From Caldilineaceae bacterium (GTDB lineage Bacteria > Chloroflexota > Anaerolineae > Caldilineales > Caldilineaceae): a stretch of DNA of 64,000 nucleotides. Positions 2,081 through 61,175 of this stretch are shown one piece after another. The stretch spans positions 62,679 through 126,678 of the forward strand of contig DAOUHX010000424.1 in assembly GCA_034428395.1 (NCBI GenBank), read 5' to 3'. The position numbers and the translations under genes were made by a program. The notes under the pieces were generated by a model. It was given only the letters and a program-made list of their open reading frames with translations. It was not told the origin of the DNA and did no database searches. Each line of letters opens with the position of its first letter. Position 1 is the stretch's first letter.

Positions 2081-3961
2081 TCAGGGCGCGGGCACTGCCG
2101 GCCGCGGCATTTCGTTGTCAAGACGCACGCCTTCAGGCAAATAGGGAGGCAGGCCGCCGCCGCTTCCGTATGCCGCCAGCAGTTGACGGACGAAGAGCGA
2201 ATAGAACGCCTCATGGCGGAAGGTCGGTTCCGCGCCCGCAACGGCCAGCCCCTCCTCAAAACCGTACCCACCAAATGATGCAACGAATTGGTCGTTTTTG
2301 GCAATGATGTGCAACGGGGTGTCCCAGCCGTCTTCGCCGCGCGAGACGCGCGGCGGCTGGTGGTCGCCCACGAGGACAAAGACCGCCTCCTGGCTGGGCT
2401 CGCTGATGATGAATTCGGTCAGCATCTCCAGTTGGTATTCGATGGCATTCCAATAATTCTGGCGCCGTTCCCTGTGTTCGATCAGCTCGGATGAGGCCGG
2501 CGGCTGCACCCCGGGAACGTTCAGCGCGCGCCAGTCCTCTTCCAGGGCAGGCAGCGGCGTCCACGGGTAATGTGAGTTCTGTGTGATCGTGAAAAACAGA
2601 TAGGGCGCGTCCGACTCCTGCCGTATGGCCTGGCGCGCGAACTGCAGAGAGTACTGGTCCGGTGGCGCGGGGCCCCACCCGTATTCAGGGCCGCTGAAAT
2701 TAAGGTCTTCGTAGAGCAGCCAGCGGTCCACGCCAAAGAAGTCGGCATACTTTTTCCAGGCCGCGGCCGGCAGCCCCATCGAGAGCGCGGTCAAGCGGTA
2801 GTAGCGATAGCCCTGGCCCTTGAGGAAACGCCCCAGGTCGGGGTACTCCTCCAGCTGGTACTTGTCGACCAGTGCGTAATACTGGGGGTCCGAACTGACC
2901 CGCAGGCCAAAGAGAGCGCTGGTGTAGGACATCCAGGACCCGCCGCCCCAGGTTGGCGCCAGACTCAGGGCCGATGCGGCGTACCAGCCACCGCCGGCCA
3001 GCCTCTCTTCGAGTCGTTCTGTCAACGCCCGGTAACGGACGCGCCAGTCAGTGCGCTTGTAGAGAACGCTGCCGTATGATTCGACAAATATGATGTAGAT
3101 CGGTGGCCGCTCGTCCAGGCTGTAACCGCCGTAGTCATATGCGAGTTGAGCTTGCGCGCCGTCGAACCTCTTCACGTTGCCGTAGACGCGGCGGGACTCG
3201 GACAGGTTGCGGCTCAGTTTGGCGGTCAGGCTGCTGAACACCATGCCCGGCCGGCCAGTTGCCTGGCGATAGATGGCCGCCTGCCCGAGGACGAGAACTG
3301 CCAGCAGGGCCACCGCCAGGCGCGACAGACGCGTGGGGCCGGTATCAGGCAGTGCCAGCCGCGCCAGGCGGTGGACCGCAAACGCGCCCGCCGCGATGAG
3401 CAAGACAGTGCCTGCCACAAAGGCAACCGTCACCCGGGCGTTTTGCAAAAAGAAGGAAAACCCCTCGGTCGCCATCCGGAACTGGCTGTAGAAGACCGGT
3501 TCCAGGTTGAAGAACGTGACCGACGCGCCCTCATATAGATAGTAGGCAAAGACGAAGAGATACGCCGCGACGAATCCGGCGCGCAGGCCCGGCCTGCGCA
3601 GCCGCGGAAGCACTGTCCACAGCGCGATGGAGAGCACGATTTCGGAGTTGAAGCGCAGCACGTCGGGCCGGCCGCGCCAGAGAAAGAGTTGACGCCAGAC
3701 CCGCTCCATCGAGCCCCCTTGGAGTTGGATCGCCGGCAGGAGCGCCCCCTCCTCCCTGTCCATCAGGACGACGGGAATAAAGAGCAGTGCGTTCAGAAGG
3801 ACAAGGACGGCCCAAAATCTGAAATCAGGGTGTATCCGTAGCCCCAATTTCCCCACGCGACCAAGCGGGGCGGAGCCTGCCCGCGCTGCAGAGGAAGCGG
3901 TTTCCTTATCAGCAATATCGGTCCGAAACAGGAAATTGAAGGCGCGGGTCAGCGGGCGCAT
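2081..3961 (-). CDS. LTA-synthase / sulfatase-family membrane protein (alkaline-phosphatase superfamily)
   Basis: 626 aa. Multi-TM N-terminus followed by a soluble domain with PPIYIIFVESYG and FVLVGDHQPP motifs typical of the phosphoglycerol-transferase/LTA-synthase family. Confidence 0.7.
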   Translation of the reverse strand: MRPLTRAFNFLFRTDIADKETASSAARAGSAPLGRVGKLGLRIHPDFRFWAVLVLLNALLFIPVVLMDREEGALLPAIQLQGGSMERVWRQLFLWRGRPDVLRFNSEIVLSIALWTVLPRLRRPGLRAGFVAAYLFVFAYYLYEGASVTFFNLEPVFYSQFRMATEGFSFFLQNARVTVAFVAGTVLLIAAGAFAVHRLARLALPDTGPTRLSRLAVALLAVLVLGQAAIYRQATGRPGMVFSSLTAKLSRNLSESRRVYGNVKRFDGAQAQLAYDYGGYSLDERPPIYIIFVESYGSVLYKRTDWRVRYRALTERLEERLAGGGWYAASALSLAPTWGGGSWMSYTSALFGLRVSSDPQYYALVDKYQLEEYPDLGRFLKGQGYRYYRLTALSMGLPAAAWKKYADFFGVDRWLLYEDLNFSGPEYGWGPAPPDQYSLQFARQAIRQESDAPYLFFTITQNSHYPWTPLPALEEDWRALNVPGVQPPASSELIEHRERRQNYWNAIEYQLEMLTEFIISEPSQEAVFVLVGDHQPPRVSRGEDGWDTPLHIIAKNDQFVASFGGYGFEEGLAVAGAEPTFRHEAFYSLFVRQLLAAYGSGGGLPPYLPEGVRLDNEMPRPAVPAP

Positions 3962-7582: not shown

Positions 7583-8497
7583 TCAGGCCGCGACCGGCCG
7601 CGAAAGTTTCGCCAGCAGCTGTGCCTGCTCATCTTCGGTCAGGTCGACCAGCGGCGGACGTACGCGGCTCCACCCAGGCCGGCCCGTCTGGTCGGCCACG
7701 ATAACCTTCAGCGCGGCAATCATGTTGAGACCGGAATCAAGAATCGCGTTGCGAATCCAATTGGTGCGCGTCTGGCGCTCCTCGGCGTCGGGGGCCTGCC
7801 AGTTCTCATAGAGGTCGCGGATGACATGGGGCAGCACGTTGGCCATGCCCGAGATACAGCCACCGCCGCCGCCCTGCATATTCTTCAGCAGGAGACCCTC
7901 CGAGCCGCAGAAAACGGCGAATCCCGGGAATTGGCGTGCGACCGCGTGCAATCCGAGCAGCGTATCGACGTCACCCGAGCTGTCCTTCACACCGGCCGCG
8001 AGGCGCGGATAGGCCGCGGCCAGCCTTGCCAGCAGCGCAGGCGAGAGAGGCACCCCGCTGACCTGCGGGATGTGGTAGAAGTAGATTCGCAGCCGCTCGT
8101 CGTCGACGCCGTCAAGAATCGCTGCGAAGGACCGAAACAGACCCTCATCGGAAACATTGGGATAGTAGAACGGCGGCAGCGTCAGGACCCCGCGGCACCC
8201 GGCCTGCACTGCGTGGCGGGACAACGCCACCGCCTCCGTGATGGCGGCCGCACCGGTCCCGATCACCAATCGATCAGCCGGGATGCCGGCTTCGATCACG
8301 GCGTCAACCGCAGCCATCCGCTCAGCCGCGCAAAAGGAGGTCGCCTCACTGTTGGTCCCGAAGAGGACCAGGCCGTGGCAGCCTCCTTCAAGCAGACGTT
8401 TGCAGAACTCGACATAAGCCGGTAGATCGATAGCGAGGTCGGCCTCTACAGGCGTCAGTGTCGGGGCGAAAACACCGCGCATAGATAAGTCGGCCAT
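7583..8497 (-). CDS. DHDPS/NAL-family class I aldolase (DapA-like; possibly a 2-keto-3-deoxy-sugar-acid aldolase)
   Basis: MADLSMRGVFAPTLTPV...GCHGLVLFGTNSEATSF...YFYHIPQVSG are typical of the DapA/KDG-aldolase family. Start re-set to ATG 8497, preceded by AAGGAG. Confidence 0.8.
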   Translation of the reverse strand: MADLSMRGVFAPTLTPVEADLAIDLPAYVEFCKRLLEGGCHGLVLFGTNSEATSFCAAERMAAVDAVIEAGIPADRLVIGTGAAAITEAVALSRHAVQAGCRGVLTLPPFYYPNVSDEGLFRSFAAILDGVDDERLRIYFYHIPQVSGVPLSPALLARLAAAYPRLAAGVKDSSGDVDTLLGLHAVARQFPGFAVFCGSEGLLLKNMQGGGGGCISGMANVLPHVIRDLYENWQAPDAEERQTRTNWIRNAILDSGLNMIAALKVIVADQTGRPGWSRVRPPLVDLTEDEQAQLLAKLSRPVAA

Positions 8498-8680
8498 TCG
8501 ATGGCTCCTTTGCTTCTGGCGCAGCCGTCTGCTGTCAAAGAGAGCGGGAATATAGCTACATGGTAAGGCGAGCAGGACGCCATTGTCAAGTGAAGCCGAC
8601 GTTCCCCAAGTCATTGCGTGCAACCCGGAACTCCACTGCAAGCATCCAGACCCCTGGCAGCAACTAAGTCATTCGCGGCC

Positions 8681-9516
8681 CCCGCAGTTCCTGGCCACTG
8701 ACAACTGCCAACTGGCTACTGCCGTTGTACGGTCGGGCCGTTCCGGCCCTCCCTTGTGCGGGGGGACACCCCCCCGCAACGCCCCCCTGTAGCTATGCCA
8801 CCGTGCGTGCGCTTCTCCAGTTTGTGTGCCAGCGCCCGGGAGATGATGCCACCGTGCCTGCGCGTCTCCAGCCTGCGTGCCAGCGACCGGGAGATGCTGC
8901 CACCGTGCCTGCGCAATTCCAACTTGGCGCCGACCCCCCGCGTACACGACGCCAGCATGCCCGCCCGGCTCCCGCAGTTCGAATCACGACTCACGACTCA
9001 CGACCCACGGCCGTTCCGGCCCTCCCTTGTGCGGGGGGACACCCCCCGCAACGCCCCCCTGTAGCTATGCCACCGTGCGTGCGCGTCTCCAGCCTGTGTG
9101 CCAGCGACCAGGAGATGATTCCACCGTGCCTGCGCGTCTCCAGCCTGCGTGCCAGCGACCGGGAGATGCTGCCACCGTGCCTGCGCAATTCCAACTTGCC
9201 GCCGACCCCCCGCGTACACGACGTCTGCGTGCCCGCCCGGCGCCCACATTTCGACTCACGACCCACGACTCACGACCCACGACTCACGACTCACGGCCGT
9301 TCCGGCCCTCCCTTGTGCAGGGGGACTCCCCCCGCAACGCCCCCTGTAGCTCTGCAACCGTGCGTGCGCGTCCCCACCTCGTCGCCAACCGAGCCCCGGT
9401 TCGACCCAGCTCCCACCTTCCCCACCGGTTCCTCGCCACTGGCAACCGGCAACTGGCAACTATCCACTATCCACTATCCACTATCCTCTGTCCTCTGTCC
9501 ACTGGCCACTGCAGTT
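8681..9516. repeat. Nested tandem repeat array: three head-to-tail units with 51-bp sub-repeats, G-run/C-run hairpins and 7-bp micro-arrays
   Basis: Units start at 8736, 9009 and 9295 (periods 273 and 286 bp). Each opens with GGCCGTTCCGGCCCTCCCTTGTGCGGGGGGACACCCCCCGCAACGCCCCCCTGTAGC. 51-bp sub-repeats start at 8796/8847/8898 and 9068/9119/9170. Heptads (T/C)CACGAC lie at 8984-9011 and 9249-9297. The array is flanked by TGNCNAC heptads at 8692-8719 and 9433-9509. Confidence 0.9.
9433..9509. repeat. 7-bp periodic array (11 units, consensus TNNCNAC)
   Basis: Reads TCGCCAC TGGCAAC CGGCAAC TGGCAAC TATCCAC TATCCAC TATCCAC TATCCTC TGTCCTC TGTCCAC TGGCCAC, then TGCAG. Confidence 0.9.
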
Positions 9517-10005
9517 CTGCGCATCCGGTCCCGCCGTCCCCTGCAAGAGGCTCCGAAACGTGCTATACTGCAAGGTCGAGCCCGAACACAACCAGGCTCT
9601 GGACCCCAACGCGCTGCATGCACACACCTGCCCGCCCACCATGCCCGGACCGCCATTCATGTCGACCTGCTCCGAACCGAACGTCCGTATCCTGCCCCAA
9701 GCGAACTTCGCTCCGGGCATTGCCGGTAACAACTCGAAATGCGCAGACCTGCCGTCCGCCGCGCCGCCCGCACACACTGTAGTGACGCACGCCATGCGGC
9801 ACATGCCGGCGCCGCCGTCATCCGGTTCTGTATCCTGTCACGAAAAGCAGGCAGCTGTCGCTGTATTGCGCAATTCCTGCGCTCAAAACGACATCTTTTG
9901 CGCGTTCTCACGACAAAAACGACAGGAACTGACCGCGGCCGCATCCTGCTACGAGAGTCCATGCCGATATCCTGTCACGAGAAGACCGAAAAATTTTTTA
10001 AAGTT

Positions 10006-10064
10006 AGGCCAAACAGGCCAAAACAGGCAATTCGATACCCTTTCGATTCCCTGTCGATTCCCGA
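10006..10064. repeat. Short tandem direct repeats (iteron-like) next to an A5T6 tract
   Basis: AGGCCAAACAGGCCAAAACAGGCAA (9-10-bp period) is followed by TCGATACCCTT TCGATTCCCTG TCGATTCCCGA (three 11-bp units, 10032-10064). AAAAATTTTTT lies just upstream. Local GC is about 42-45%. Confidence 0.8.
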
Positions 10065-10392
10065 TTTCCGAAAAATTCGCAGCCACTTTACGTCACAATA
10101 CGACGCTCTTGGGCCTATTCCGGAAAGAATCGGCCGTATTCTTGCCCCTATGTGCGGCTTCACCGACAAGGAAACTGACGCCACTACTGACTTCGACCCT
10201 GATTTCAGCGCGCGCAGGCCAGGTGGCCCGCGACGAAGTCCTCAAATCGTCCAAAAGGCCGGAAGCCGCCATCCCGCCGTTCCCGCTGCTACAACACTGC
10301 CCCAAGAAAAGGAAAGCGGGGCAGACAACGAATACGAAACCTGAGCACGGATGGAGTTGGGAACCATTCGCAAGCAGGATTAATTTTGGTAC

Positions 10393-10421
10393 TTTTCAGT
10401 CAACCGATTTTGGTATAGAAT
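10393..10421 (+). promoter_or_regulatory. Candidate sigma70-type promoter for the ATP-grasp operon
   Basis: TTTTCA (10393-10398), 17-nt spacer, TAGAAT (10416-10421). Weak -35, good -10. About 170 nt upstream of the proposed start. Confidence 0.3.
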
Positions 10422-10596
10422 TGCCAACCATGCCCCGCTCGGCAACCGTATGGCGCACCCGTCGTCTCAAGGTAAGTCTTCACGAGCGCGGCGCTGCCAA
10501 GCCGCAATCTTGAATTGCGCAACTGTTCAAATAGGCCATCCTCCCGCCTTGCAGGCAGCAATCCAGAAATCTTCACAAGGATTGGCAGGTATCAGC

Positions 10597-27963: not shown

Positions 27964-28272
27964 CCACTGCAGTCCCCGGCCACGAATCACGAATCCCGGC
28001 CGCTCTGGGCGGTCGGGCCTTTCCGGCCCTCCCTTGTGCGGGGGACCCCCTGCAACGCCCCCCTGACACCTCTCCTCCAGCCACGTGCCGCTGCTTTGGA
28101 CAGTCAGAGGTCAGCGCAGCCGTGGTGATGCCATCGTGTGTCCCCGGTTCCAGCTGACGTGTCAGCGCCAGCAAGGGTGTGCCGCCGTGCCGCCGCGTCC
28201 CCAGCCGATCGCGCGTTCACCCGGCGCCTCCAGTTCCTGACCACTTATCACTATCCACTATCCACTGCAGTC
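27964..28272. repeat. Dispersed copy of the 8681-9516 repeat element, bounded by an 11-bp direct repeat (MITE/REP-like)
   Basis: CCACTGCAGTC occurs at 27964-27974 and 28262-28272. Inside are CACGAA heptads, GGTCGGGCCTTTCCGGCCCTCCCTTGTGCGGGGGACCCCCTGCAACGCCCCCCTG (28011-28065, matching 8731-8789), a degenerate 51-bp-type sub-repeat, and TATCCAC heptads (28249-28265). Confidence 0.7.
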
Positions 28273-61102: not shown

Positions 61103-61175
61103 TGACCCACCAGGGATTCGAACCCCGAACCCGCGGATTAAGAGTCCGCTGCTCTGCCAGTTGAGCTAGTGGGCC
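61103..61175 (-). tRNA. tRNA-Lys (anticodon CUU)
   Basis: Manual cloverleaf: GGCCCAC TA GCTC AACTGGCA GAGC A GCGGA CTCTTAA TCCGC GGGTT CGGGG TTCGAAT CCCTG GTGGGTC A. All stems pair. CCA is not encoded. Confidence 0.9.

Follow-up and report, generated by a model that had tools for sequence, protein, structure and literature searches.

A nested hairpin and heptanucleotide repeat array between divergent genes of a Caldilineaceae bacterium as a probable insertion of a dispersed, non-coding mosaic repeat family

Among the short repeats of bacteria, the STRR of cyanobacteria are heptanucleotide tandem repeats, the SDR of Nostoc are very small hairpin repeats nested in heptamer tracts and other repeats, and the RPE of Rickettsia are palindromic elements inserted in-frame into genes. 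Heptamer repeats (LSSR), such as TAACTGA of Beggiatoaceae, Cyanobacteria and Bacteroidetes, are intergenic, differ in steps of 7 nucleotides (nt) between relatives and are often mixed with other heptamers (PMC4679880). REPs alternate in orientation within BIMEs (PMC2817692), and in Pseudomonas fluorescens SBW25 REPINs form tandem clusters of near-identical units including their flanks, the largest having four units and exceeding 700 bp (PMC3116915). The array described here occupies positions 8681-9516 of a stretch of 64,000 nt, referred to as the window, of contig DAOUHX010000424.1 from a Caldilineaceae bacterium (Chloroflexota), and it lies between a DHDPS-family gene and an ATP-grasp gene. 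We propose that it is probably an insertion of a lineage-specific, non-coding, non-autonomous mobile mosaic repeat family of sponge-associated Caldilineaceae. A unit of this family comprises the junction C[A]CTGCAGT[T/C]C, a microsatellite of heptanucleotides, a core of ~60 nt with two GC hairpins, and either an alternative tail or 51-nt sub-repeats, one to three in number.

In support of this proposal, exact matches to the 22-mer CCGTTCCGGCCCTCCCTTGTGC, sought in one genome of each species, amount to 23 loci, of which 20 lie on OZ242331.1, the closed chromosome of a Caldilineaceae metagenome-assembled genome (MAG), two in a second Caldilineaceae MAG and one on a small contig binned elsewhere. 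The 20 loci of OZ242331.1 carry 44 modules, numbers that are lower bounds since the loci were ascertained by the exact 22-mer. A profile search (nhmmer) gave 64 modules in 27 sources, standing solo or in arrays of up to six units with periods of 118-304 nt, and the modules within any one array are all on the same strand (direct repeats). The sequence around the core is mosaic. On the upstream side the junction CCGCAGTTC is followed by the heptads CCACTGG, CGAATCA, CCGACCA or CTATCCA, and the downstream side carries TAGCTATGCCACCGTGC and 51-nt units in some elements and an alternative tail, 'ACACC...', in others. On its 5' side as on its 3' side the core has at least three alternative flanking modules, beside unrelated genes. 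The array is thus no isolated architecture. The earlier note on this DNA had held that a lack of other copies and of conservation in relatives would point to a local duplication; the outcome is the opposite, and the core is present at the 44 sites of OZ242331.1, in other assemblies, in sponge metagenomes and a second time in the window. BLAST searches of plasmids and phages yielded only trivial heptad matches of 39-45 nt, viral contigs (IMG/VR) scanned with the 22-mer and the hairpin core gave 0 matches, and the JGI metagenomes scanned with the 22-mer likewise gave 0.

A metagenome scan with the hairpin core GCGGGGGGACNCCCCCCGCAACGCCCC added 36 further contigs, and most of these come from Mediterranean sponge metagenomes, namely those of Petrosia ficiformis (LXNJ), Sarcotragus foetidus (LXNI) and Aplysina aerophoba (MKWU). 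The three belong to one study together with the seawater assembly LXNH (PMC5099237), in which no core match was found. In the copies of high G+C content this core is unchanged but stands between different 5' and 3' modules. Five contigs of 44-56% G+C contain a related GC-rich hairpin element of 90-120 nt in which a 27-nt core is identical; this 27-nt core is identical across organisms of 44-65% G+C. On one contig of 51% G+C (L051:5893-5979) a related multi-hairpin element forms an in-frame insertion of 87 nt, or 29 amino acids (aa), in the gene of the PriA helicase, directly upstream of the Walker A motif, and on another (L046:3255-3360) a related element lies in an AT-rich intergenic stretch beside phage portal, large terminase and helix-turn-helix genes. 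Both the insertion in PriA and the copy beside phage genes speak for the mobility of this related element.

Presence and absence at the same site were followed in relatives in which the order of ATP-grasp gene, gap and DHDPS gene is conserved (percentages give the aa identity of the relative's DHDPS to that of the window). The gap is empty in L034 (92%), with ~80 nt between conserved promoter blocks, and it holds in L035 (91%) two reverse-orientation modules with junction and heptads, without the ~780-nt element that adjoins the array in the window. In L030/L031 (95%) the junction, eight CTATCCA heptads (against ~4 in the window) and the 780-nt element are found with no module, in L036 (86%) there are 694 nt of unrelated sequence, and in L033 (85%) 3.3 kb with a different tandem repeat of ~200 nt. 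Since L030/L031 keep the heptads and the 780-nt element without the module, positions 8705-9458 of the window represent an indel. The content of the gap varies while synteny stays, which indicates that the arrays are dispensable for the neighbouring genes, and such gaps are zones in which repeat DNA recurrently lands or is retained. The ~200-nt unit of L033 (reverse complement of L033:1581-5000, ~300-1010) is present in ~4 copies and contains ACGAGAG runs.

The array is accompanied in the window by a solo unit of the same family at 27965-28272, which the earlier note did not list. The ends of the latter are a 10-nt direct repeat, CACTGCAGTC, at 27965-27974 and 28263-28272, its module spans 28005-28071 with heptads on either side, and it is located between two divergently oriented genes, of a MarR-like and of a MerR/B12-binding regulator. 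A relative with a MerR/B12-binding protein 82% identical (aa) lacks the unit in the orthologous gap and has there a different repeat, of ~107 nt and three copies. At L037:3628-3900 a ~107-nt unit, repeated three times, shows GTAG followed by a hairpin GGGCGCC-CCTTGTG-GGCGCCC and looks REP-like.

Orthologous arrays differ in copy number as well. There are 3 units in L005 versus 5 in L027, and at least 3 in L007 versus 1 in L012, with a linker that differs by one 7-nt heptad; between L010 and L028 the flanks are 98.5-99.1% identical and the arrays are rearranged and not colinear. Such changes match the expectation for slippage and unequal recombination among nested direct repeats. In the mechanism that we propose, the unit would arrive as mobile DNA and would then expand or contract at three nested scales (7, 51 and ~270 nt), its internal repeats undergoing slipped-strand mispairing and recombining unequally with one another. 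The evolution of the arrays, similar to that of variable-number tandem repeats, and the five copies in OZ242331.1 that share the arrangement of an array plus the 780-nt element would also be in line with an immobile local tandem duplication (minisatellite), the likeness to other loci being the result of an ancient segmental duplication. We consider this very improbable given the alternative 5' and 3' modules beside unrelated genes, the independent reverse-orientation occupancy of the same gap in L035, a core much more conserved than the surrounding paralogous DNA, and the presence of this core in different species and sponge hosts. In the hairpins of the orthologues L007 (reverse complement, ~3530-3560) and L012 (~3050-3080) the loop is inverted (GGGCAGGC-CTTGT-GCCTGCCC versus GGGCAGGC-ACAAG-GCCTGCCC), as would be expected from hairpin-mediated template switching, and GTAG stands at the 5' foot, in a REP-like manner.

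Within the window, tandem-repeat, repeat and pattern searches bear out the three nested periods, the conserved hairpin and the bracketing heptads that the earlier note had claimed. Tandem Repeats Finder reports positions 8736-9376 with a period of 272, 2.3 copies (copy number as assembled), 90% matches and a score of 1012, and the unit starts lie 273 and 286 nt apart in the repeat search, exactly as had been read. The 51-nt arrays at 8795-8914 and 9067-9186 comprise 2.4 copies each; the period is exact, as claimed, but the copies are non-identical (89% and 91% matches, respectively). CGACTCA heptads amount to 4.3 copies at 8980-9009 and 6.3 copies at 9252-9295, and outer heptad tracts are located at 8697-8723, 9438-9461 and 9459-9511. 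The G-run/C-run hairpin pattern, for which 0 matches are expected by chance, occurs at 8757-8777, 9030-9050 and 9316-9336, and TGGCCACTG is indeed found at both array ends (8692-8700 and 9503-9511). The stretch 8676-8690 at the left junction resembles 8966-8980; at other loci the modules are preceded by a matching arrangement of junction plus heptads, and the inter-unit linker reads CCCGCAGTTCGAATCACGA. The array closes with the palindromic junction ACTGCAGT. Every outer heptad (NNACTGN; 8684-8726 and 9433-9517) contains one half-site of this palindrome, and the left junction opens with the other half-site (CAGT); these half-sites may represent a candidate protein-binding or recombination site, or a coincidence.

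The analysis of the fold as single-stranded DNA gives three consecutive hairpins for the ~70-nt module, with -22 kcal/mol and z = -3.95 (+ strand) or -3.61 (- strand), whereas in the 51-nt units no structure beyond that of shuffled sequences is seen (z = +0.3 to +1.7). Thus, the description of the array as highly structured holds for the module alone. Among the copies of the Caldilineaceae genomes the core is ~95% identical (60 distinct copies; GGCCGTTCCGGCCC-TCCCTTGTGC-GGGGGGACNCCCCCC-GCAACGCCCCCCTG). Hairpin 2 reads GGGCCG-TTC-CGGCCC in the Caldilineaceae genomes and GGGCC-TTC-GGCCC (20 copies), GGGCC-TGC-GGCCC (14) or GGGCG-CAAG-CGCCC (3) in the high-G+C metagenome copies, and the closing pair of hairpin 3 is flipped in one sub-family. 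The hairpins are maintained across variants, which fits DNA and RNA structure alike. The fold (z ~ -4), the stem-preserving variants of hairpins 2 and 3 in divergent copies and a covariation score reached by only 4 of 500 shuffles would also suit a small structured RNA in each unit, or an array that is a long non-coding transcript. However, among the closely related genome copies 17 cells of hairpin 3 are broken versus 1 compensatory out of 471, and in 41 distinct sequences, with 91.8% paired cells, a two-sided change is seen in one pair (two cells) only; compensatory changes give the hairpins weak support. Furthermore, neither strand folds better than the other, the elements can be dispensed with and are found in both orientations, one related copy lies in-frame within a protein-coding gene, and no promoter-like or terminator-like site was found inside the units when both strands were scanned. 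Rfam at gathering score returned for the whole window only a tRNA at 61103-61175, and a permissive search of 8450-10500 with Rfam 15 gave as best scores 15.2 bits (gathering 58.6) and 14.3 (gathering 80), with no match even at E<=5, in agreement with the earlier view that no known non-coding RNA architecture is involved. We regard an RNA role as improbable.

Hardly any credence is given to a protein-coding repeat gene or an assembly artefact, even though long open reading frames (ORFs) are open in several frames, the translation of 8725-9729 matches 48 database 'proteins', and short-read contigs break in the repeats. These 'proteins', of 183-560 aa, are nameless and Pfam-less and fall mostly into singleton clusters, none with more than 5 members; they were rejected as real homologues, being spurious ORFs called on sister arrays. 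Pfam found no family in the three long ORFs across the array region, and a codon-usage log-likelihood caller trained on long ORFs called no gene inside the arrays, the codon usage of which is non-coding. The unit periods of the family (118, 171-185, ~206, 240, 263 and 272-304 nt) are mostly not multiples of three, and units of 286, 118, 178 and 185 nt shift the frame. A repeat-protein gene was therefore discarded for want of a common frame, coding-like codon usage, a domain or a constant length, and the initial assignment of the array as non-coding stands. The same architecture recurs in several metagenomes, as well as in circular assemblies obtained independently from long reads, which demonstrates that the family is real and not produced by assembly. 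The short-read contigs with the DHDPS gene stop in repeats, L001/L029 (ENA) 406 nt upstream of the gene, inside the 51-nt repeats, and L032 (a Logan contig) 245 nt upstream, inside a heptad tract; the repeats fragment assemblies of this Caldilineaceae lineage.

The arrays show a preference for divergent genes. According to the gene calls of this analysis, 9 of the array-bearing intergenic regions are divergent, 8 co-directional and 0 convergent, compared with 8, 67 and 11 array-free neighbours, respectively (Fisher odds ratio 11, p=1.2e-4 for divergent enrichment), and in L026-L028, with genes called separately by a tool, the setting is also divergent. The orientation of the modules relative to the flanking genes is not fixed. 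This enrichment without any convergent site, together with the location of the array beyond both promoters, is what would be predicted if the arrays were selected cis elements between divergent promoters, acting either as protein-binding arrays or as cruciform or non-B-DNA absorbers of supercoils that insulate the promoters. The conservation of the core at ~95% including unpaired bases, when neighbouring paralogous DNA is at 80-85%, the very stable hairpins on both strands and the 27-nt core identical across organisms of 44-65% G+C point in the same direction. Nevertheless, the same gap is empty, reversed or filled with unrelated repeats in close relatives, the copy number ranges from 1 to 6, 8 of the 17 sites are co-directional, the orientation to genes varies, and no candidate protein was found. 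We consider such a role unlikely, and retain it as the main rival in view of the biased genomic context and of a core conserved to an extreme degree.

Several observations weigh against the insertion of a mobile family that we favour. A selected role would account as well for the arrays being enriched at divergent promoters, and the unpaired columns of the core are as strongly conserved as the paired ones, with weak covariation. The pattern of presence and absence could partly reflect deletions between heptad tracts, the polarity of L030 versus the window being uncertain. Furthermore, no transposase, integrase or HUH domain was detected by Pfam among the ~45 ORFs of the window, which agrees with the earlier statement that neither a transposase nor an integrase lies near the array, and in an all-against-all BLASTP of the locus ORFs no protein recurs beside the loci, the search returning only ABC-transporter-type paralogues and orthologous pairs. 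The family resembles MITEs in being non-autonomous, intergenic, structured and polymorphic for presence and absence, but it shows neither terminal inverted repeats nor a locus-specific target-site duplication; the flanking direct motif CACTGCAGTC (GCAGTTC) is the same at every locus and thus belongs to the element or to its target. Taking these points into account, we still favour the mobile family, and the most likely interpretation of the array is selfish or neutral DNA, with an influence on expression or on the DNA structure nearby that, if any, would be incidental.

As a guess, and a doubtful one, the units might be mobilised by a trans-acting enzyme recognising the hairpin core, in the way that HUH/Y1 enzymes (RAYT, IS200/IS605 TnpA) act on REP hairpins. 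A wider and slightly more speculative possibility is that the G6-loop-C6 hairpin followed by AACGCCCCCC would be the recognition site of a mobilisation system circulating among unrelated bacteria of the sponge holobiont, and possibly phages, and that in Caldilineaceae it would have been captured into a composite unit, which would target, or persist in, the supercoiled zone between divergent promoters and there seed arrays of a three-level satellite. If so, the near-uniform orientation of the modules would reflect a single-strand, replication-coupled insertion. On OZ242331.1 (loci L004-L025) the modules occur in both orientations, '+' at 4.864, 0.016, 0.312 and 0.752 Mb and '-' at all 16 loci between 0.808 and 4.392 Mb, forming two contiguous arcs with a chance probability of ~0.004. 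A link between module orientation and the replication strand was rejected: once gene strand is corrected for, the GC skew at third codon positions (GC3) stays positive on the top strand nearly throughout the chromosome and does not flip where the orientation flips, and at the loci gene strand dominates the GC skew. In the window the strand of the modules is the C-rich strand with fewer genes.

The gene-free gap claimed for the array was confirmed with window ORFs and Pfam, and extends over 8498-10596 (~2.1 kb) between the divergent DHDPS (-) and ATP-grasp (+) genes (Table 1). Alpha-E and transglutaminase genes come after the latter, and the proteins closest to the DHDPS product carry annotations that place them in Caldilineaceae MAGs. 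The ATP-grasp ORF comprises 543 aa from ATG 10450 and 494 aa from GTG 10597, its orthologues having 494-501 aa; the ATG start is probably over-extended, which is the probable reason why an exact look-up of the product gave no match. The GTG start sets the limit of the gap given above, and with it the promoter-like site on this side would leave a ~170-nt 5' leader. As the promoter-like sites are close to each flanking gene, the entire insertion falls between both promoters.

Table 1. Positions in the window of the array, its neighbouring features and the solo unit.
Feature	Position	Strand	Basis or remark
DHDPS-family gene	7583-8497	-	left of gap
Promoter-like site, DHDPS side	8589..8560	-	promoter-like sequence scan
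Variable zone between two conserved promoter blocks	8598..10358	.	alignment with L034, L030/L031, L035, L036, L033
Left junction: CCGCAGTTCC motif, then TGNCNAC (ACTG-core) heptads into first module	8681..8726	+	repeat analysis
Module copy 1, the family core	8722..8792	+	fold; profile match E=3.7e-22
Hairpins of module copy 1	8722-8732; 8735-8749 (GGGCCG-TTC-CGGCCC); 8757-8778 (G-run/C-run), then AACGCCCCCCTGTAG	+	fold
51-nt sub-repeats of unit 1, beginning ATGCCACCGTGC, ~2.4-3 copies, unstructured	8795..8947	+	tandem repeats, fold
Inter-unit linker: CGGCTCCCGCAGTTC, then (T/C)CACGAC heptads x4.3	8966..9009	+	tandem repeats
Module copy 2, hairpin 9030-9050	9009..9066	+	pattern and profile search
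51-nt sub-repeats of unit 2	9067..9219	+	tandem repeats
Degenerate junction (CACATTTC), then heptads x6.3	9244..9296	+	tandem repeats
Module copy 3, hairpin 9316-9336, one uncompensated G-to-A change	9295..9352	+	pattern and profile search
Truncated sub-repeat and terminal segment TTCGACCC...CGGTTCCT	9353..9432	+	common to array ends of L008, L014
Right-hand heptads GGCAACT, CTATCCA, CTCTGTC, closing with palindromic junction CCACTGCAGTTC	9433..9517	+	tandem repeats
Non-coding dispersed element, ~780 nt, directly 3' of array	9508..10290	+	recurs after other arrays
TGCTATACT in 780-nt element, invariant, extended -10-like	9561-9569	+	conserved among copies of the element
TATCCTGTCACGA x2 in 780-nt element	9831, 9968	+	
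AT-rich stretch in 780-nt element	9990-10005	+	
Three 11-nt TCGATNCCC repeats in 780-nt element	10031-10062	+	
Promoter-like site, ATP-grasp side	10393..10421	+	promoter-like sequence scan
CP_ATPgrasp (circularly permuted ATP-grasp) gene	start 10450, more likely GTG 10597	+	right of gap
Solo unit, same family	27965..28272	+	profile match E=1.3e-13

The end of the array at 9516 set by the earlier note proved incomplete, as the adjoining ~780-nt element is a dispersed repeat that travels with such arrays. It follows module arrays in L008, L014, L018, L022 and L025 (80-85% identity), is also found in L030/L031, and has at least five copies in OZ242331.1 with a module array ahead of each. Other copies run ~170 nt further, and the copy of the window is thus 3'-truncated. 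A 69-aa minus-strand ORF common to five copies was rejected as a gene, its identity being ~55% at the aa level versus ~83% at the nt level, and the RNA fold of the element has no covariation support (RNAalifold covariation term +3.99). The copies of this element are far more diverged than the neighbouring modules, which suggests that the modules are younger, homogenised or more constrained.

The family accounts for a class of long 'empty' gaps between genes in the genomes of Caldilineaceae and other sponge symbionts, as well as for falsely called ORFs and broken contigs there, and its hypervariable loci can be used for strain typing. With it, Chloroflexota joins the few lineages with organised hairpin or heptamer repeat families (enterobacteria, pseudomonads, cyanobacteria and Beggiatoaceae). 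By itself the family reveals no new biological mechanism, and tandem REPIN clusters with flanks (PMC3116915) and intergenic arrays of ACTG-core heptamers (PMC4679880) are already known; its main points are the three-level architecture, the bias to divergent promoters and a core common to unrelated members of sponge microbiomes. Since the same sites are recolonised by different repeat families in sister species and the 27-nt core is common to sponge-dwelling organisms that differ widely in G+C content, it is a tractable system in which to study the movement of such elements and the reason for their accumulation between divergent promoters.

Compared with the described systems, CRISPR was rejected, in line with the earlier note: the segments between modules are repeats (51-nt and heptads) shared between loci and not unique spacers, and there are no cas-like Pfam domains nearby. 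The likeness to SDR and RPE, to the latter on account of the in-frame element with the shared core inside PriA, does not extend to sequences, hosts or sizes, and the element described here builds multi-unit arrays. The outer heptads (NNACTGN) share the ACTG core of TAACTGA, and heptanucleotide repeats as such are confined to the linkers, in five tracts and with the 7-nt step between L007 and L012; the heptads are linkers of a larger unit, in contrast to free-standing arrays just upstream of start codons.

The resemblance to REP and BIME lies in short GC-rich palindromes that are intergenic, mosaically clustered, non-coding, variable in copy number between strains and present in tens or more copies per genome; the 19-21-nt G-run/C-run palindrome plus the 15-nt hairpin falls within the REP range (~20-40 nt, extragenic, many copies). 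GTAG is, however, not at the 5' foot here and instead stands 13 nt 3' of the hairpin in only some copies. The family unit includes nested heptads and 51-nt sub-repeats, it is enriched at divergent promoter regions with none at convergent gene ends, and no RAYT, the cognate Y1/HUH transposase whose gene carries the repeat on its flanks in those systems, was found, the search for transposase-like Pfam domains having covered the ~45 window ORFs. The modules of every array are direct, whereas those of BIMEs alternate. With REPINs the family shares a non-autonomous hairpin element and tandem repeats that include flanking sequence; in a REPIN, however, two inverted REPs at a short and fixed distance make up a single long hairpin, and here only direct repeats at 118-304 nt are seen, the inverted pairs of the repeat search being an artefact of the self-complementarity of each hairpin. 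The nearest thing to such a doublet is L025, in which two inverted modules (reverse complement, ~2616 and ~4110) ~1.5 kb apart enclose a ~1-kb element, the sole such case seen. Thus, the earlier opinion that the array is no REP or BIME holds for the features that define BIME and REPIN, alternating orientation and the inverted doublet, but in its behaviour the family can be placed with the class of REP, BIME, REPIN and heptamer microsatellites.

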